Assembly: GCA_001768075.1 (NCBI GenBank)
Contig: MEMX01000070.1
Span: 174,637-214,404 of the forward strand
Source: Anaeromyxobacter sp. RBG_16_69_14
GTDB lineage: Bacteria > Myxococcota > Myxococcia > Myxococcales > Anaeromyxobacteraceae
DNA length: 39,768 nucleotides
Reading direction: 5' to 3'
Both the position numbers and the translations under genes were made by a program. The notes beneath the pieces were generated by a model, which was not told where the DNA came from, searched no databases, and was given only the letters and a program-made list of their open reading frames with translations. Positions 24,040-38,816 of the stretch are shown here, in pieces; position 1 is the stretch's first letter, and every line of letters begins with the position of its first letter.

Positions 24040-24299
24040 GGCAAGGCTCACTCCCCGCCTCGGACGGTATTCGTATTCGTTACGATGGGTTTTCGCCTTG
24101 CCACCGCGTCGGACCGTTCTGGTATGAGGACTCGCGTCAACGACCCTGGAGGCTGCTGATCCCCCCAGCTGCCCGGTTTCACGAAGGAACCCTCGATGCC
24201 TCTGTCATCCATGCGTCACACCGCTCGACGAGCTCGAGCGGGTGGCGTCCCCCACCAGGAAGCTGTCGCGAGCAACTGCGCCCCGGGAACCCTGGGCAC

Positions 24300-24842
24300 A
24301 TGAACTGGTTCAGGCGCCTCTTCACTCCCGGACGCGAACCGACGCCGGCCCTGCTCGAGGCACCGGCCCCGGTGCCTCCCTGGGCTCTCGATCTGCTGGA
24401 GGGAGTCCAGAAGGCCGGCCGCGCGCAAGCCAGAGCCATGGCGCGCATCGAGGCGCTCGAATCGAAGCTCGAGGGTGGCTTCGCCGACCTGCGCTCCAGG
24501 GTCAGCCCCAGACCTGCCGCTGCGCTCTCCTTCGACGAGGTGCTAGACGCCATGGACATCCTGGACGAGGCGTGCCGGACCCTCGAGGGGGCCGGGAACG
24601 CGCCAGCGGCGCAAGGCCTTCGCGGAGTCGTCGATCGGCTGCAGCGTTTTCTCGCCCGGATGGGACTCACGCGTGTGGCGGAGCCGCCTGTTACGCTGGA
24701 CGGCAGGCTCTTTCGCGCTGTCGGTATCGTGGAGCGCCCCGACCTCGCAGATGGTGCACCGGCGCAGGTGGTGCGCGCCGCGACCCTCGCAGGCGAGCGC
24801 GTCGTTCGAGAGGGAGAAGTCTTGATCAATCGGAGGCCTTGA
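24300..24842 (+). CDS. GrpE-like nucleotide exchange factor (divergent paralog)
   Basis: N-terminal coiled coil, VLDAMDILDEA, GLRGVVDRLQRFLARMGL and C-terminal VVREGEVLI beta domain; 2 bp upstream of the Hsp70 gene. Confidence 0.78.
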   Translation: MNWFRRLFTPGREPTPALLEAPAPVPPWALDLLEGVQKAGRAQARAMARIEALESKLEGGFADLRSRVSPRPAAALSFDEVLDAMDILDEACRTLEGAGNAPAAQGLRGVVDRLQRFLARMGLTRVAEPPVTLDGRLFRAVGIVERPDLADGAPAQVVRAATLAGERVVREGEVLINRRP

Positions 24843-24844
24843 GC

Positions 24845-26512
<1,668 letters not shown>

Positions 26513-26527
26513 AACACGGAGGCGGCC

Positions 26528-28576
26528 ATGGCGAGACCGAACCGGGAAGAGCGGCAACGGCAACAGGCGCTCCAGGACCTGTCGACGGGGCTCGCGCGTG
26601 GTGACGCGGAGCGGGCGGTCTCGGCTCTGCTCCGGCTGCCGGCTCCCGAGAGGGCCTCCGGCCTCGCCGACGTCGCCCCGCTCTTCCGCGCCACCGTGGC
26701 GAGGGAGTTTCGCGCAGGAAACTGGTCGCGCCTCGTGTCCTGCGCGGCGCGCGCCGAGCGCGAGCCGCGCCTCTTGGTGGAGGACGCCGCCGCCGAGGAC
26801 GAACGAGAGGCGCGCTGGGCGCTGATGTGGGGCGCCGCCCGCTCGCGCGAATGGGCGCGCGCTCGCCTCCATTTCTCCGCGCTCGCCGCCCACCTGCCGG
26901 CGCGCCTCGCCGCTGCAATTCAAGCGTACCTGGCCGCGGACGGTGCGCCGGAACCGGAGCTCTTCCTGGCGCTGCGGCCGCCGCCACAGGAGAGCCCGGC
27001 CGATCCCCGACTTGGCTATGACCCCGGGCAGCGCGCGGCGTCCAGAGGCGCGTCGGCACGCGCTCCGATGGGCCCCGAGGAGGTCGAGCCTGCCGTGCTC
27101 GCCAGCCGGGCGCTCCTCGGACCCGCGGAGTTCGTGGTCGCGATGGAGAGATGGGCCGACGGGGTTCCTCCCGGCCTGGCGCCGGCGCTCCTCACCTTGG
27201 CGGCACGACTCGTCGCAGGTGACGTCTGCGCGCGGCTCGTGGCAGGCGCTCCCGCCTGGGAACCGGCGCGGGCGGTGGCGCGCTTCTTCCGCCGCCTCGG
27301 AGCGCCGGCAGAGCTCGCCGCCGAGGCAACGCTCGCGCTGCGGGCCGCGGGCGCCGCGGCGCGGGAGCGGAGCGAGGGCCTCGGTCGCGAGGAGGCGCTG
27401 TCCGTCGCCGAGATCGTGGGCGCCGCGGCCCTGCACCCGGGATTGCGCGGCGCCGCGGTGGCTCTCGCCGCACACACGCCCTTCGCGATCGGGGCGCGGT
27501 CGATCGCGCTGGACATGCTGAAGGAGCTGTGTCAGCTGCCGGACGGCTCGCCGCTGCTCCTCAAGGCCCTGGGGGTCTGGGCCACCAGGGCCGAGCCTGG
27601 CGCCTGCCCGCCACCATGGATCGAGCGTGGATTCACCCAGCTCCTCGACCGCCAAGGCGAGCTCGCCCGATGCCTTCGCGAGGTGCCCCTCCGCACGCAG
27701 CAGGCGGCGGTCGCGACCGCTCCCGCCTCCTTGCCGGTTGCCGACGCGGAGCGCTTCCTCGACCAGGCGTGGCGGTGGGCAGACGACGGCGCGAAACAGG
27801 CGCTGCTGGACGGCTTCGACGAGCTGCTCTCGCGGGTGCGCGCCACCCAGGGAAGGCCGCCCGCGTTGCCCCCCGCGCTCCTGCAAGGGCTCTTGCTGGA
27901 GATGGCCGCCGAGATGGGGATGGAGCCGAACGAGGGTGAGCTGCGCGAGATGCTCGACTCTCCGATGGGGCGTCAGCTGGCGCGCCGCATGATGGCCGGG
28001 GCGATGCCTGATACCGGCGAGCGGCTCCCGGAGGTGGCCCGCCGCCTCTGGGATCGCTTCGCGGAGAGGATCGTGCCGTACCGGATCTCGTATCTGGAAA
28101 CGGCGCTGGAGAACTCGAAGGGCAAGGTCGAGCGCGATCGCGCCGCCGAGCGCTACCTCGGCGACAGGAGCGGCGACGCCCTCACCATGCTCGAGGCCAT
28201 CCGGTCGGCAGAGCGCGAGGACTGTCCGCGCGCGTCCAAGGCGATGCTCGAGCGCCTCGTGGGGCGCCTCAAGGGGGATCGCGACGGCCTCGCTCGGGCC
28301 TTGCTGGAGGCGGGGCGGCTGCGCCTTCGCCGGGGTATTCGAGGGCCTCTGGCGCGCGCCTTCGAAGCCGTGGACACGCAGGCGCGCGCGCGCGGCGAAG
28401 CGGAGTCGCGCGACGTGGCGCCGGCTCGACTCGAGGCGAGTCTACTGGATCGCCGGCGTCGGCCTTCGCGCGCGAACGCACGTGGAAGGCCCGCGAAGAA
28501 GAGGGATGCGGGCCGGAAACAGAGGCACGAGCAGCAGCAGCTCTTCCCGCTGGAACAGAGCGGCACGCGCAGGTGA
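26528..28576 (+). CDS. Large alpha-helical hypothetical protein of the Hsp70 operon
   Basis: 682 aa with GGAGG RBS, 15 bp after the Hsp70 stop and 6 bp before the J-domain gene; Ala/Arg/Leu-rich; basic C-terminal tail ending QQQLFPLEQSGTRR. No recognisable catalytic motif. Confidence 0.8.
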   Translation: MARPNREERQRQQALQDLSTGLARGDAERAVSALLRLPAPERASGLADVAPLFRATVAREFRAGNWSRLVSCAARAEREPRLLVEDAAAEDEREARWALMWGAARSREWARARLHFSALAAHLPARLAAAIQAYLAADGAPEPELFLALRPPPQESPADPRLGYDPGQRAASRGASARAPMGPEEVEPAVLASRALLGPAEFVVAMERWADGVPPGLAPALLTLAARLVAGDVCARLVAGAPAWEPARAVARFFRRLGAPAELAAEATLALRAAGAAARERSEGLGREEALSVAEIVGAAALHPGLRGAAVALAAHTPFAIGARSIALDMLKELCQLPDGSPLLLKALGVWATRAEPGACPPPWIERGFTQLLDRQGELARCLREVPLRTQQAAVATAPASLPVADAERFLDQAWRWADDGAKQALLDGFDELLSRVRATQGRPPALPPALLQGLLLEMAAEMGMEPNEGELREMLDSPMGRQLARRMMAGAMPDTGERLPEVARRLWDRFAERIVPYRISYLETALENSKGKVERDRAAERYLGDRSGDALTMLEAIRSAEREDCPRASKAMLERLVGRLKGDRDGLARALLEAGRLRLRRGIRGPLARAFEAVDTQARARGEAESRDVAPARLEASLLDRRRRPSRANARGRPAKKRDAGRKQRHEQQQLFPLEQSGTRR

Positions 28577-28582
28577 GCCGGC

Positions 28583-28984
28583 ATGGCAGACAAAGACCCT
28601 TTCGAGGCCCTCGAGATCACCGCCACCCTGGATGTGGCGCAGGTGAAGCGCGCATACTTCGCGCTCCTGCAAAGGCATCCGCCGCACATCGATCCTGAGG
28701 GGTTCCGCCGCATCCGGGCCGCATACGAGGCGCTCATGGCTCCGGGGGCCCGGGGCCTGGCCTATGCGACCGCGCCGATCGGGGCAGCCGAGGAGCTGGC
28801 CCGATGGCACGGGCGCTGGGACGCGCCGATGCAACAGGCCCTCTCGCATTTCAATGAGGCGAGCGCGCGAGCCACGGCCATCGAGTCATTCGTGGCGGGG
28901 GCGTCGAGAATGACCTTGTCCGGCGCCGCTGCGATGTTCGGCGCACCCGGGCTCGCCGGCCAAGGTGACGGTGGTGACGGCTGA
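28583..28984 (+). CDS. Small J-domain (DnaJ-like) protein with HPP variant motif
   Basis: DPFEALEI...VKRAYFALLQRHPPHIDPEGFRRIRAAYEAL matches the J-domain helix pattern. Confidence 0.85.
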   Translation: MADKDPFEALEITATLDVAQVKRAYFALLQRHPPHIDPEGFRRIRAAYEALMAPGARGLAYATAPIGAAEELARWHGRWDAPMQQALSHFNEASARATAIESFVAGASRMTLSGAAAMFGAPGLAGQGDGGDG

Positions 28985-34055: not shown

Positions 34056-34100
34056 GATGCGCCTCCTGGGGGTAGCGGCCCCCACGGTGCAAACGTAGCG

Positions 34101-34225
34101 GTAGCGGGGGTGACAGCCAGTGACTAGTGGCCTTGCCCCTCGGTGCTCATTGACACCTTCGAGGGAGAGTCAAGGCTCTCCACCTTCGTTCGTAACCCGT
34201 TGAATTCATGGATGCATGAGCCCCG
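34101..34225 (+). repeat. Left copy of a ~125-bp diverged direct repeat (att-arm-like)
   Basis: Shares ggtgacagccagtga, gctcattgac.ccttcgagggagagtc and tcgtaacccgttgaattcatggatgc with 37805-37932. Confidence 0.9.
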
Positions 34226-34451
34226 TTCGGGTGACCTCACCGCCACAGATTACACGGCGGGGCCGCTACCTCTACCGGGGCTGAAGGTTGGTTTCCCGGT
34301 CTCGGTGGTGGCCATCGAAGGTATGGTAAGGCTTCTCGGACGGGTGCGCTCGGCGCCATCAACGCCCTCGCGAATGCCCCGCAAGTAGGACCGCGCGTCA
34401 GCACCCTGGGATCGAGGCCTGGGCTGCGCACCGCGCCCAGGCCGCCCCTGG

Positions 34452-37289
34452 CTACGCGATTCGAACAAACTGCGCATCGGACGGAACGCCGGCCCCGTTG
34501 ACGATGAACAGCAAGTAGAACCCGGGCGGCGCGATGTTGCCGTGCGCAGGAGCATGCGTGTCCAGGCTGGTCGGCGTTCGGCTCACGATCGGCAACTTGA
34601 TGTAGCGCTGCCCCGCGTCGGTGTGGTGGGTCACCGAGATAGGCGCGAGCAGCACGACCGATTCGATCTCGTTGGACTGCGGCGTCTGGATCGTGAAGCC
34701 CGCCCCGTACACCGCATTCGGTGGCGCGGCTGAAATCACTGGGCGCGCGCCGCGGTTCAGGTAACCCGGTGTATAGACCTCCGCGGACATCAGTTGCGGC
34801 TCGCCGCCCGCATAGAGCAGCCGCGCATCGGGCATCAGCACGCACACCGAGTGGTACTGGCGCCCGACTGACAGCGGCGCTGTCGGCGTCCACTGGTCGA
34901 GTTCGGGGTCGTAGATCTCGGTCGGGAGGACGACCGAGCCGGGATTGCGGCTGCCGATGCTGCATCCCCCGACGATCATGATCTTGCCATCGGGCATCAC
35001 GACGGCCGCCACGTTGGACCGCGGGTTGTTCATGTCGGCCAGCCGTTGCCAGGCCGCACCGCCGAGGCCGCCGCTGAACTCGATCATTTCGGCCGAGAGC
35101 GGATTGCGCGTGGTCGCCATGCCGGACGGACCACCGCCGAACACGAACACCCGCGTGCGCTCCGGGGTGACCGTGGTGTCGATCATCACGAGGCTCATGC
35201 CTTCCTGGCGGTTCGGGAACTGCTGCGTCCCGAAGTCGGTCCAGTTGCCCGAAGTGGGCCCCGTGAGGGTCAGGTGCGCGGTGTTCGTGCCCGGCAGCGG
35301 GTTCCACGACGTGCGGGTGTGGAAGACGTGCCCGCTGGGCAGCAGGTGCATGCCCGGGTAGAGGCCGGTGAAGCTGCGTGCAGCGCCAGTGACCATCTGC
35401 CAGTTCGCCCCGTCGAAGACCTCCACGCTGCTGTTCCCGTCGCCCGAGAAGGCCAGCACACGCCCGTCGGCAAGGCGCACGCCGGTGGGATACCAGCGCC
35501 CCTGTGACATGCCACCGGTCGCGCCAAACGTTCCGGCATCCGGATTCATCGGGTCGGGGGTGAAGACATACGCCCGGCTGTTCGAGTGCCCGGGCGCGTC
35601 GCCGCCGATGACGAGGAGCCGGCCATCGGCCAGGAAGGTGTGCCCGGCGCAGAAGAAGTCCTCCGGCATCGCGATGGCGGCGGAGAAGGTCCGGTTGACC
35701 GGATTGAACAGCCGCGCCTCGAGCGGCAGACCCCGTTCCGCGTGGCCCGAGAAGAGCAGGACACGGCCGTTGTGGAGCTGCGCGCCATGCACGATGAAGA
35801 TCGGCGCATCGGGCGTGCGTTCCCAGCCGTCTCGATCCCCGCAGCTGTGATGGTCGACGTCCGGGCATTCATGCAGGTGCACACGCTGCTTCGGGAGATG
35901 GAAGCACAGCTTGTGCAGTTCCTGCTCGGTCAGCTCGACCTCCTGCAGCGATCGCACCAGCCCAGCCATGCCCTCCATCATGTGCATCTCGACGTGGCAG
36001 TGGAACAGGAAGTCGCCCTGCAGCTGGAACTTCCGCTTCTTCGGCCGATGATGGCGCGGCTCGTCCGCTGCGCCGTGTGCGGGCGGTTCGTCGTGGTCCG
36101 CCTGCGGTTCGCAGTCGCACTCGCACGGGGGCGGCCACAGCAGTGCTGGCGGCACGACGGAGTCCAGGGTGAACGATTCGGCCGGCCCGATCGACTTGGT
36201 GTCGACCGATCCGTCGGCCGTCTTCCAGCGCTGCCCGTGCAGGTGGAAGTTGTGCCACATCATGCCCAGGTCCAGATTGAAGACGTGCCAGCGGATCCGC
36301 TTGCCCGACTTCGCCACGATCGTCGGCGTGTTGCCGATGAACGAGCGGCCATTGATGACCAGCGACTCCAACGCGGCGCTCGAACTGTCCGATGCCGTGT
36401 GGTCCTGGATACCGCCGTTCTGCCAGGTGACGGTGCCGCCCGGTGCAATCGTCACGTCGTCGGGGTCGAAGCGCGAGGGCGCGTCGAGGATGCTGACGGT
36501 CCTGGCCATCGCGCCACCGGCGGTGACGCGCACGGTACCGCGCATGCCGGGGTGGATCTTGCAGAAGTATTCGTAGGTGCCCTGATCGGCGAACAGGTGC
36601 GAGAACGTCCCCCCCGGTGCGAGCGTTCCGCTGTCGAACAGCGGCCGGCCCACCGACGGCACGAGGCGATGCAGGAACACCGGCGCCTCGATGTCCACCT
36701 TGTCGCAGTGAGGATCGCGCACGACCAGCCCGCCGAACAAACCCCGATTCACCGCTTCCGCCAGGTGTATCGAGTGGTCGTGGAACGGCCAGGGCCCGAT
36801 GGTGGTCTCGTCGATGTCGAAGACGTAGCACCACCGCCTTCCCGGACAGATCGCATCGCTGCGGTTGCCGTCGTCCTGGTGAACGCCGAACGGCCAGCTG
36901 CCGTCCGAGTCGATGCCGTAGTGCACGCCATGCACGTGGAAGCTGTGCGGCTCGTCGTCGGCGTTGAGGACGTGCACGTATAGGCGCTCGCCGGGGTGTG
37001 CGTAGAGCACGGTGCCTGGAATGCGACGATCGAAGCTCGGCTCGTTGATGTCGGCGGCGATCAACGGGTCGGTCTTCGGTAGCGTGAAGTCCTTGTCGAG
37101 GTACTCGCGGTACACCAGGGCATCGAGCGTGCGGCGCAGAACCTCGGACGGGGGGATCGTGGCGTCCTCGTGCCCGTGGTTGCGCATGCAATCCCGGGGC
37201 TCGCGATGGTGATCGTGGGCGTCGGGAGCAACCGGGCTGTACTCGCGCAGCTTCTCGATCTTCAGGTAGACGTGACGCACTGCGGCCAT
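34452..37289 (-). CDS. Fusion protein: two-domain multicopper oxidase + inserted cupredoxin + galactose/glyoxal-oxidase-like Kelch domain + DUF1929-like Ig domain
   Basis: MCO ligands HSFHVHG, WPFHDH, HNFHLHG, HCHVEMHMMEGM; cupredoxin YFCKIHPGM and QDHT; copper radical oxidase motifs FCAGH, RWYPT, RQYHS, VTHH; C-terminal APPGFYLLF. GGAGG RBS before ATG 37289. Confidence 0.92.
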   Translation of the reverse strand: MAAVRHVYLKIEKLREYSPVAPDAHDHHREPRDCMRNHGHEDATIPPSEVLRRTLDALVYREYLDKDFTLPKTDPLIAADINEPSFDRRIPGTVLYAHPGERLYVHVLNADDEPHSFHVHGVHYGIDSDGSWPFGVHQDDGNRSDAICPGRRWCYVFDIDETTIGPWPFHDHSIHLAEAVNRGLFGGLVVRDPHCDKVDIEAPVFLHRLVPSVGRPLFDSGTLAPGGTFSHLFADQGTYEYFCKIHPGMRGTVRVTAGGAMARTVSILDAPSRFDPDDVTIAPGGTVTWQNGGIQDHTASDSSSAALESLVINGRSFIGNTPTIVAKSGKRIRWHVFNLDLGMMWHNFHLHGQRWKTADGSVDTKSIGPAESFTLDSVVPPALLWPPPCECDCEPQADHDEPPAHGAADEPRHHRPKKRKFQLQGDFLFHCHVEMHMMEGMAGLVRSLQEVELTEQELHKLCFHLPKQRVHLHECPDVDHHSCGDRDGWERTPDAPIFIVHGAQLHNGRVLLFSGHAERGLPLEARLFNPVNRTFSAAIAMPEDFFCAGHTFLADGRLLVIGGDAPGHSNSRAYVFTPDPMNPDAGTFGATGGMSQGRWYPTGVRLADGRVLAFSGDGNSSVEVFDGANWQMVTGAARSFTGLYPGMHLLPSGHVFHTRTSWNPLPGTNTAHLTLTGPTSGNWTDFGTQQFPNRQEGMSLVMIDTTVTPERTRVFVFGGGPSGMATTRNPLSAEMIEFSGGLGGAAWQRLADMNNPRSNVAAVVMPDGKIMIVGGCSIGSRNPGSVVLPTEIYDPELDQWTPTAPLSVGRQYHSVCVLMPDARLLYAGGEPQLMSAEVYTPGYLNRGARPVISAAPPNAVYGAGFTIQTPQSNEIESVVLLAPISVTHHTDAGQRYIKLPIVSRTPTSLDTHAPAHGNIAPPGFYLLFIVNGAGVPSDAQFVRIA

Positions 37290-37564
37290 GACCAAGCCCT
37301 CCACCGCAATTCATGCCTTCTCATGACTCCTCCTCAGCGGCCGTTCTTCTCCGGTGGTGCGGCTTCCCGGTGATCGCTCGGCGGCCACCGGCGGGAGCCC
37401 TTGGTGCATCGAGCGGGCTCCACCAAGGAGTCGGCGGGCGACGTCACCGTGACATGGCAGTCCCACGTGAGCCTAAGGAGGGGGTCCATGGGGGCAGGCG
37501 TGAGCAGTCAGCGCGGCGAAGGCCGCACCAAACGCTCTAAGCGGTTCGTCAAAGGCAGAGCGCT

Positions 37565-37858
37565 ATGCCGGATGGCCCGGACAAGACCAACGGCATCGCC
37601 GTCGGCGATGTCGCCGACTATCAACTCCTCGCCGCGCGCGCCCGCGGCGGCTTCGACGCCGACGTGCCGTACGTCCAGCCTCCGCCCGGCCCCGGCGTCT
37701 TCAAGCCGGTGGCGCCGACGCCTCCCGTCGACATCAAGCTGAAGCAGGGGGGATCTCTCCTCGTGGTGAACCACCCCGAGTACCCGCCGGTGCATGCGAC
37801 CTTCGTAGCGGCGGTGACAGCCAGTGATTACGTGGCTTTGCGCCCCAGCGCTCATTGA
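37565..37858 (+). pseudogene. Relic of a vanadium-dependent haloperoxidase / PAP2-superfamily gene
   Basis: PDGPDKTNGIAVG...LLAARA..G...PPPGPGVF.P resembles the N-terminal region and NHPEYPPVH resembles the HPEYPSxH active-site motif. The usual intervening sequence is missing and the 3' end runs into the right direct repeat. Confidence 0.65.
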
Positions 37859-37932
37859 CGCCTTCGAGGGAGAGTCGGGGCTCTCGGGGCTTACGGTCGT
37901 AACCCGTTGAATTCATGGATGCGTGGGCCCCG
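37805..37932 (+). repeat. Right copy of the ~125-bp diverged direct repeat
   Basis: Aligns end to end with 34101-34225, with scattered substitutions and small indels. Confidence 0.9.
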
Positions 37933-38210: not shown

Positions 38211-38816
38211 ATGAGCGATGAAACCGTCAAGCGCTGCCCATGCTGTGGCTCGCACTATCAGCGCGTGCGACCCCCGGAGGAGCGCCACCCGGAACCGGCG
38301 GGCGAGATCCGGGCCGTGCAAGCCGCCCTCGCCGCCTCCCGCGTCGAGGTCGACGATCTGCGCCAGAGTCTCGAGGCGTGCCAGTTCGCGGCCGGGGAGT
38401 GCGCCTGGGCGGCGATCCGGGTCTTGCGCGACGCATGCCAGGTGAGTGGGGCCGAGCTCTCGCCCGGCGAGCAGGATCGCGTGACGCGCGCCCTCGAGCG
38501 CGTCGAGTGGTTCGAATGGTGCGACGCCCGACCGGAGTCTGAGTCACGCCGGGAGCTGCGGGCGGTCCTCGCGGCGCTCAAGGTTTCGCGGTCTGTCCAC
38601 GTGGAGCCCGCCGCGGAGCCAGGCGGGATCCACGCCGAGACGGAGCGCGACGGGGGTCGGGCATTCGACCGGCCAGACGTGCTGGGTCGTCCTCCGGCGC
38701 CGCGACGAGCTGGAGGGGGCCCTGGCGCCGTCAGGTTGCAGTGTTGCACCCAGGAAGACCCTTGTACGACGGACGGTTCGTCGAGCGTGGCCGCGCCTGC
38801 GAGCAAGATCCCGTGA
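38211..38816 (+). CDS. Hypothetical protein with N-terminal CPCC motif and coiled coil
   Basis: ATG with purine-rich RBS after an AT-rich upstream region; RCPCCG then a helical segment. The C-terminal third looks low-complexity or degenerate. Confidence 0.5.
   Translation: MSDETVKRCPCCGSHYQRVRPPEERHPEPAGEIRAVQAALAASRVEVDDLRQSLEACQFAAGECAWAAIRVLRDACQVSGAELSPGEQDRVTRALERVEWFEWCDARPESESRRELRAVLAALKVSRSVHVEPAAEPGGIHAETERDGGRAFDRPDVLGRPPAPRRAGGGPGAVRLQCCTQEDPCTTDGSSSVAAPASKIP

Follow-up and report, generated by a model that had tools for sequence, protein, structure and literature searches.

The gene described here lies in a stretch of 39,768 nucleotides of Anaeromyxobacter sp. RBG_16_69_14 (contig MEMX01000070.1, positions 174,637 to 214,404; hereafter the window) and encodes a two-domain laccase with a cupredoxin inserted in it, followed in the same chain by a copper radical oxidase. 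The enzyme family is real and uncharacterised, each of its modules is of a known kind, and the full design is conserved across many soil microbes. The reading that we prefer, at about even odds (a probability of roughly 0.5), is that the protein is a self-recharging radical oxidase, in which a one-electron wire leading from the propeller through the cupredoxin and the laccase to O2 would restore the Cys-Tyr radical. Precedents exist for a laccase-cupredoxin fusion and for a linked activator of a radical oxidase. The first-pass annotation of this DNA knew of no characterised enzyme with such an architecture, and none turned up in the literature searched (titles and abstract openings); the combination of a three-part chain, a permuted insert at the type-1 (T1) copper pocket and a clade with Ser at the cofactor Cys was not found there either, most subscription journals being uncovered.

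On the minus strand the reading frame opens at ATG 37289 and closes with the stop at 34452, with zero internal stops (Table 1), and this start is preferred to an in-frame GTG at 37304 because GGAGGG stands 7 nt upstream of it. The GC content at third codon positions (0.875) is inside the range of the neighbouring genes. Pfam matches comprise Cu-oxidase_3 at residues 86-193 (E 1e-14), Copper-bind at 223-255 and Cu-oxidase_2 at 306-446, and in the C-terminal half Glyoxal_oxid_N together with Kelch models at 538-830 and GO-like_E_set at 849-944 (E 3e-23). From the ligand sets six Cu per chain are predicted, namely the laccase T1, type-2 (T2) and two type-3 (T3) coppers, the cupredoxin T1 copper and the radical-oxidase Cu. 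All of the laccase motifs claimed in the first-pass annotation are in the translation (HSFHVHG 115-121, HDH 170-172, HNFHLHG 346-352 and HCHVEMHMMEGM 430-441), as are those of the galactose-oxidase type (FCAGH 546-550, RWYP 598-601, RQYHS 810-814 and THH 887-889). Its cupredoxin site is also present, with YFCKIHPGM at 241-249 and H297; however, this is not the separate domain that had been described, since it lies within laccase domain 2 and is permuted. Similarly, the His/Cys-rich segments DAHDHH, CECDCE and HLHECPDVDHHSC occur as stated, but the sole true linker between modules is 456-487.

Conservation was assessed from a protein search in which 7993 candidates were scored and 1008 clusters passed E <= 0.001, with an alignment of the query and the best 120 matches. 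All of these 120 are 931-1208 residues long and each has both the laccase and the galactose-oxidase Pfam families. The laccase T1 ligands H346, C431, H436 and M441 are found in 121/121 sequences, domain 1 having HDH in place without a Cys, and the T2/T3 histidines H118, H120, H170, H172, H349, H351 and H430 are equally invariant, with H432 in 120/121. Cupredoxin ligands H297, C243 and M249 occur in every sequence and H246 in 119 of the 121; the radical-oxidase residues C547, Y600, Y812, H813 and H888, which were aligned to GlxA, occur in all. The 21 ligand and cofactor residues are present together in 119 of the 121 sequences, a figure that overstates family-wide conservation because the aligned sequences are the closest matches. 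DAHDHH and CECDCE are weakly conserved in this alignment, and C34, C148, C475 and C483 are almost invariant. The claim of no obvious Sec or Tat signal holds across the alignment, 0/121 N-termini being flagged by a crude hydrophobicity and twin-arginine screen. N-terminal extensions of more than 60 residues are seen in 33/121 sequences, one of which (P0122) has a transthyretin-like match.

An assembly artefact, which had been raised as a possible refutation, can be dismissed: whole fusions occur across many phyla, including in isolate genomes, a protein 97% identical is encoded on another contig, and the best 120 matches are all full-length fusions. A scan of GTDB genomes, with the best 80 of 405 confirmed matches kept, corresponding to 77 loci, found carriers in Nitrosomonas, Nitrosospira, methanotrophs, Nitrospira, Acidobacteriota, Actinomycetota, Bacteroidota and Planctomycetota and in one Nitrososphaera record; the YH and HCH residues are partly selected for in these loci because the scan patterns contained these motifs. 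In four public soil or sediment sequencing runs contigs match the gene piecewise, none across the whole, and one extends from the propeller into the linker; no RNA run was listed as containing the gene. The ESM Atlas holds three unstudied clusters with the identical Pfam set, without structure. When the laccase half alone served as query, most of the matches scanned (29 of 150) were this fusion or pieces of it. Many repeated-cupredoxin proteins, with 7-14 matched stretches each (for example, P0150 and P0164), were also among the laccase-half matches.

In the full-length model (mean predicted local distance difference test, pLDDT, 83.1; predicted template modelling score, pTM, 0.59) the domains can be trusted and their mutual arrangement cannot, as the high pLDDT is accompanied by a low pTM. 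A model of the N-terminal part (pLDDT 80.5, pTM 0.71) matches Streptomyces small laccases in Foldseek with template modelling (TM) scores of 0.66-0.69 by target length. As in the type-B laccases (SLAC 3cg8, Ssl1 4m3h, SgfSL 6s0o, Cellvibrio CjMCO), there are two cupredoxin domains with T1 in domain 2 and eight T2/T3 histidines split four and four, at a fold TM of about 0.68; in domain 2 these are H349, H351, H430 and H432, and the domain also has a variable His/Cys-rich loop at 385-418. Domain 1 has a conserved D33-C34-M35...H40 segment and C148. A NirK nitrite reductase was ruled out, because T1 is in domain 2 and every T3 ligand is present. Unlike the type-B laccases, the fusion has no Tat signal, carries a 95-residue cupredoxin in the hairpin equivalent to that of Met199, and continues into a radical oxidase at its C-terminus.

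Judged from alignments, the plastocyanin-like cupredoxin is circularly permuted and is inserted in laccase domain 2 after the first strand of that domain. The canonical order, with an N-terminal His ahead of the Cys-His-Met loop, is reversed here, as a circular permutation would have it, and the two halves align in swapped order in all four alignments shown (9cck, 5fc9 and two amicyanins). Cupredoxin query residues 7-45 correspond to 9cck 370-408 and residues 62-93 to 9cck 337-368, which puts the break between 368 and 370 of 9cck. V311 aligns to chain position 200 of the S. griseoflavus laccase, chain position being assumed equal to the numbering of the paper, where the Asp198/Met199 hairpin is counted among the walls of the T1 substrate pocket (PMC8744557). 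Because V311 aligns with position 200, the insert ends immediately before the equivalent of this hairpin.

A known enzyme comparable to the laccase-cupredoxin part is Nmar_1354/MCO4 of Nitrosopumilus maritimus (9cck), which is likewise a two-domain laccase with an extra T1 cupredoxin, reported to lie 13.5 Å from the laccase T1 (PMC11761707). As described there, the Nmar_1354 cupredoxin is C-terminal, in normal order and joined by a 15-residue linker; that of the fusion is internal and permuted, a radical oxidase follows it, and the pendant C-terminal cupredoxin that marks MCO4 is absent. Since 9cck is the best PDB match of the cupredoxin (E 2e-8), and since ammonia oxidisers or methanotrophs (Nitrosomonas, Nitrosospira, Nitrososphaera, Crenothrix, Methyloglobulus) make up many of the carriers, one might propose a nitrogen-oxide enzyme like Nmar_1354, converting hydroxylamine to HNO at the laccase-cupredoxin module. 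We find this barely credible: the 9cck match is limited to cupredoxin residues 217-255, Acidobacteriota, Actinomycetota and Bacteroidota are also carriers, the Nitrosomonadaceae copies fall mostly in one clade, and the propeller is left unexplained.

The C-terminal half is a Kelch propeller with a C-terminal E-set fold (Z 40-46 against 25 structure entries), closest to GlxA of Streptomyces lividans (4unm; Z 46.3, root-mean-square deviation 2.4 Å, 447 residues aligned), and galactose oxidases match it too. Like GlxA and AA5 enzymes (galactose oxidase 1gof, CgrAlcOx 5c92), it has the Cys/Tyr/Tyr/His/His site within the same Kelch and E-set frame. W599 takes the position of GlxA W288, because the W288A structures read RAYP there. 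The identity to GlxA in the structural alignment is about 26%, and the cut-off of the GlxA equivalog NF052501 is missed (202.8 vs 800 bits). The fusion lacks the lid insertion of GlxA, chain 108-242 being passed over in the alignment; it has neither membrane anchor nor signal, and it is joined to a laccase. Among the structure-database matches no solved structure spans the laccase and propeller halves. The CorE2 paper, in the part available, concerns a stand-alone Kelch oxidase and not a laccase fusion (PMC4937300).

In the reading that we prefer, three chains would assemble like other type-B two-domain laccases, with the copper clusters that reduce O2 built between neighbouring chains. In the propeller C547 and Y600 would become cross-linked, and the propeller would carry out the two-electron oxidation of an alcohol or aldehyde with release of H2O2. 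Once the radical had decayed to inactive Cu(II)-tyrosine, a single electron would pass to the cupredoxin Cu, then to the laccase T1 Cu and to O2. The grafted cupredoxin would thus extend the buried T1 outward and accept single electrons from the propeller site, and the wire would stand in for the partner peroxidase that fungal enzymes use. Copper radical oxidases are reported to undergo one-electron decay to an inactive state, from which ferricyanide (424 mV) or a peroxidase reactivates them (PMC11611005; PMC10928124). Ferricyanide at 424 mV is enough for galactose oxidase (PMC11611005), and a type-B T1 with a Met ligand is given as 537 mV in one example (PMC13151041). Type-B laccases are trimers according to the same source. 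A genetically linked one-electron activator has a counterpart in the tandem peroxidase-alcohol oxidase pairs of Colletotrichum and Magnaporthe (PMC11611005), whose activator is a separate secreted heme peroxidase using H2O2; the activator of the fusion would instead be a fused copper wire using O2.

A predicted complex of residues 1-470 with 484-945 gave a score of 0.57 (runs 0.57, 0.64 and 0.57; best control 0.00) and is rated weak. The runs share at least 74% of contacts and the partner pLDDT is at least 90, with no interface reported. The mark for a pass was reached by 116/157 solved complexes and 2/215 mismatches; scores of 0.60 or less include only 18 of the 116 passing solved complexes but both of the passing mismatches. 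The electron wire proposed in the first-pass annotation therefore keeps some support, from the cupredoxin at the T1 pocket wall, the 13.5 Å T1-T1 relay in Nmar_1354 and this weak docking pass, but its narrow form, in which the wire would serve only to regenerate Cys-Tyr, does not survive: Ser replaces the cofactor Cys in 23/53 rows of the tree described below, with the wire ligands kept except for the axial Met.

Several points count against a self-recharging oxidase. Some sites demand far stronger oxidants, galactose oxidase W290H needing 892 mV (PMC11611005). The type-B T1 faces a central tunnel (PMC13151041), which a 460-residue propeller cannot reach unaided, and module placement is uncertain in the full-length model, with its pTM of 0.59. 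Two seemingly complete laccase modules without a propeller, P0139 with the cupredoxin and P0138 without it, occur among the 29 representatives scanned. The lack of a signal peptide leaves cytoplasmic copper loading and O2 chemistry unexplained. Finally, Ser at C547 in those 23 rows is accompanied by the wire, and recharging of Cys-Tyr cannot be its only purpose because the Ser clade retains it.

This clade was delimited from the 77 GTDB loci, which yielded 54 intact open reading frames (ORFs) after fragments, frameshifted copies and unrelated oxidases were dropped; leaving out two laccase-only paralogues and adding the query gave 53 rows. A tree of the laccase half (quick IQ-TREE, support by the SH-like approximate likelihood-ratio test, SH-aLRT, only, midpoint root) has three clades, which are that of the query (25), a second Cys clade (5) and the Ser-at-C547 clade (23; loci L044, L045, L049-L057, L059-L064, L066, L068, L070, L073, L076 and L081). 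The Ser or Cys propeller type is explained by one change on this tree (support 99; 0/500 shuffles as low), so the laccase and propeller halves have travelled together, a congruence that rests on the tree of the laccase half with propeller types marked on it. Y600, Y812, H813 and H888 are kept by all 23 Ser-clade members, along with the ligands of the cupredoxin and the His and Cys ligands of the laccase. In 22 of them Trp stands at 546 (F546W) and in all 23 Phe stands at 599 (W599F); with this swapped Trp/Phe pair and every copper ligand kept, the clade may hold a new Tyr- or Trp-radical copper site. One member, L056 (NZ_JBOGQF010000038.1), is the Nitrososphaera record and is sister to Nitrosomonas and betaproteobacterial copies, for which transfer and mis-binning are both possible. 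E642 is missing solely in the query and its three closest relatives, and the same four lack the Trp after residue 781 that 116/121 sequences have, so that their substrate pocket is likely unlike that of the rest of the clade.

At the axial position of the laccase, Met stands in 25/25 members of the query's clade and Leu in 19/23 of the Ser clade and 5/5 of the second Cys clade, and T1 sites without an axial Met are reported to have higher potentials (PMC13151041). A higher-potential T1 next to a site free of the cross-link would suit a wire, which is suggestive; the Leu/Ser link counts as a single event and goes no further than suggestion, because Leu may be ancestral. These same observations bear on another explanation, that of an obligatory electron drain, by which both substrate electrons would reach the laccase cluster by way of the cupredoxin and laccase T1 coppers, yielding water and little H2O2. 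The Ser clade, where 23/23 members lack Cys-Tyr but retain the wire and the copper ligands of the propeller, would fit it, as would the prevalence of Leu there. Yet Leu is found in the five-member Cys clade as well, so that its link with Ser may be a single inherited state, the query carries the full canonical cofactor, and galactose oxidase is described as having no significant activity on one-electron acceptors (PMC4370742). We regard the drain as distinctly unlikely, and coupling of substrate oxidation to O2 reduction through the wire, which the first-pass annotation had offered as a second option, is weakened by the same result. Occasional recharging is favoured over an obligatory drain because one-electron acceptors do not support turnover of galactose oxidase.

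Around the relatives, a Pfam scan of the 137 nearest ORFs of 38 loci found tyrosinase, LodA/LodB and some copper-homeostasis genes. Seeded searches of DNA reaching up to 6 kb on each side placed tyrosinase in 18/77 GTDB loci (five phyla, 9 of them Nitrosomonadaceae; many loci are short) and LodA in 4/77, and in the metagenome loci (40 of 57 examined) tyrosinase in 6/40 and LodA in 1/40. Tyrosinase had no match in 14 control genomes nor in the source genome. These neighbours suggest a signal-less oxidase set producing H2O2, aldehydes and quinones. They also speak for a scaffold that carries two catalysts not wired to each other directly, any activation being by a diffusible mediator: the laccase and cupredoxin would act on diffusible phenols or catechols, such as the products of tyrosinase, and turn them into radicals and quinones, aldehydes and H2O2 would come from the propeller, and the set would build a pigment or cross-linked polymer. 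The tyrosinase and LodA counts, with no tyrosinase match in the control genomes, argue for it, as do the LodA group ID operons, reported to include tyrosinase and multicopper oxidase genes (PMC4417212), and the activation of glyoxal oxidase by diffusible radicals (PMC11611005). We nevertheless judge this arrangement unlikely, if worth keeping in view, since it leaves an invariant cupredoxin grafted at the T1 pocket unexplained, since 9 of the 18 tyrosinase loci are Nitrosomonadaceae and hence not independent, and since neither tyrosinase nor LodA was found in the source genome (92% complete). The group ID operons (tyrosinase, multicopper oxidase and lodA/lodB) hold the same three oxidase kinds as the surroundings of L024, L026, L037 and L063; in the available text of PMC4417212 laccase-type domains are described and no Kelch/radical-oxidase fusion is mentioned, and the window copy has no such neighbours.

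Particular loci show variations on this theme. At L024:9319-13647 a 1443-residue protein joins laccase, permuted cupredoxin, radical oxidase and LodA, and it adjoins a second fusion paralogue, tyrosinase and lodB. A divergent second two-domain laccase lies directly upstream of the fusion in tyrosinase-lodA clusters at L026:2168-4057 and L037:4837-6717, that of L026 having a C-terminal cupredoxin-like segment. Five Nitrosospira loci (L016, L017, L027, L034, L036) have a divergent upstream cluster of tyrosinase and a small His-rich protein without a Pfam match at 1e-5, which we presume to resemble tyrosinase caddie proteins. Small Cys-rich proteins with a Kazal-type domain flank the fusion gene in Nitrosomonas loci L011, L013-L015, L022 and L067.

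Copper handling would give the laccase yet another role, that of a cuprous oxidase fed by the His/Cys-rich segments, which would detoxify Cu(I) or load the propeller copper. The His/Cys/Met-rich segments, the invariant C34, C148, C475 and C483, and heavy-metal P-type ATPase, DUF326 or CusS genes adjoining L051, L062, L069 and L081 would agree with such a role; copper-gene neighbours are a minority, however, the His-rich loops are weakly conserved, and in the query's clade conservation of the radical site is complete. We hold it highly unlikely.

The copy of the fusion in the source genome is, by comparison with relatives, a recent insertion. No match spanning both halves was found in 60 related genomes (0/60), the best being confined to the propeller (best E 6e-59). 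Between the PfpI and M23 genes the source genome has 4.8 kb of DNA that starts at 34069 and contains the fusion gene. In two same-genus genomes this gap contains instead a gene that is found on another contig in the source genome and that we take to be apt-like. The fusion gene is bracketed by two repeat copies, for which a partial match was found in 1/60 genomes of relatives; as RNA genes these are excluded, having no Rfam, tRNA or tmRNA match and folding z-scores of -0.77 to +0.33. The right part of the repeat recurs incompletely, over about 41-47 bp, at three more places, G000 C10:1523-1563, C14:56756-56802 and C143:2859-2900. Copy 1 lies inside a miniature element whose inverted ends resemble, we presume, those of the Tn3 family, which have inverted repeats of about 38 bp starting GGGG and a cognate Tn3 transposase. 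Such inverted-repeat-like ends are present at 34069 and 34272 and at a minimum of four other sites of the genome (at least G000 C42:4023, C49:5782, C139:1489 and C147:51624); in this element family they start with GGGGTAGCGGCCCC. No match to the Tn3 transposase (PF01526) was found in the source genome, which is 92% complete. In G023 (L089) a related end abuts an apparent Tn3 transposase C-terminus, which we read as such from a motif in it.

Table 1. Features of the fusion gene and its flanks; positions are those of the window, residues those of the 945-residue protein.
Feature	Position	Strand	Remarks
Fusion gene	34452..37289	-	945 residues, P0001; two-domain laccase with inserted cupredoxin, then copper radical oxidase
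Ribosome-binding site GGAGGG	37297..37302	-	7 nt before ATG 37289; from sequence
Laccase domain 1	36705..37289	-	residues 1-195; T2/T3 ligands H118, H120, H170, H172; no T1 site
First strand of laccase domain 2	36663..36692	-	residues 200-209; precedes the insertion; from secondary structure in models
Circularly permuted type-1 cupredoxin	36378..36662	-	residues ~210-304; C243, H246, M249 precede H297
Remainder of laccase domain 2	35925..36377	-	residues 305-455; T1 ligands H346, C431, H436, M441
Linker	35829..35924	-	residues 456-487; invariant C475, C483
Kelch beta-propeller of copper radical oxidase	34746..35828	-	residues 488-848; C547, W599, Y600, Y812, H813
Galactose-oxidase E-set domain (DUF1929)	34455..34745	-	residues 849-945; bears H888
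Miniature element	34069..34272	.	~204 bp; inverted ends; inner 34101-34225 (125 bp) is repeat copy 1
Repeat copy 2	37805..37932	+	84% identical to copy 1 over 128 columns, E 2e-32

No conserved operon surrounds the source-genome copy, its neighbours being PfpI, an NAD-binding oxidoreductase and an M23 peptidase. ORFs 37565-37858 (+, 97 residues) and 38211-38816 (+, 201 residues) in the inserted region have no Pfam or NCBIfam match, and the former terminates within repeat copy 2. Elsewhere in the window, at 24242-28984 (+), an Hsp70-like gene, a DUF6109 gene and a short DnaJ-domain gene follow one another.

Copper radical oxidases lose activity by one-electron decay and have to be supplied with a peroxidase or chemical oxidant, and the need for horseradish peroxidase burdens industrial use. 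The fusion family is common in ammonia oxidisers, where its role is not treated in the literature searched. The boldest version of our reading, which is tentative and somewhat doubtful, is that this is an ancient, widespread, trimeric 18-copper family in which a permuted cupredoxin plugged in the laccase pocket wires O2 reduction to the radical site, which would make it the first self-activating copper radical oxidase, and that in the Ser clade the wire drives a cross-link-free Tyr or Trp radical and hence a new copper-radical centre. Because nature has fused the oxidase to a one-electron sink driven by O2, the question of how bacteria reactivate such enzymes becomes testable in one purified protein, and the Ser clade lets one ask, in natural proteins, if the Cys-Tyr cross-link can be dispensed with where there is a wire. 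The fusion could also serve as a model for alcohol or aldehyde oxidases that are self-sufficient.

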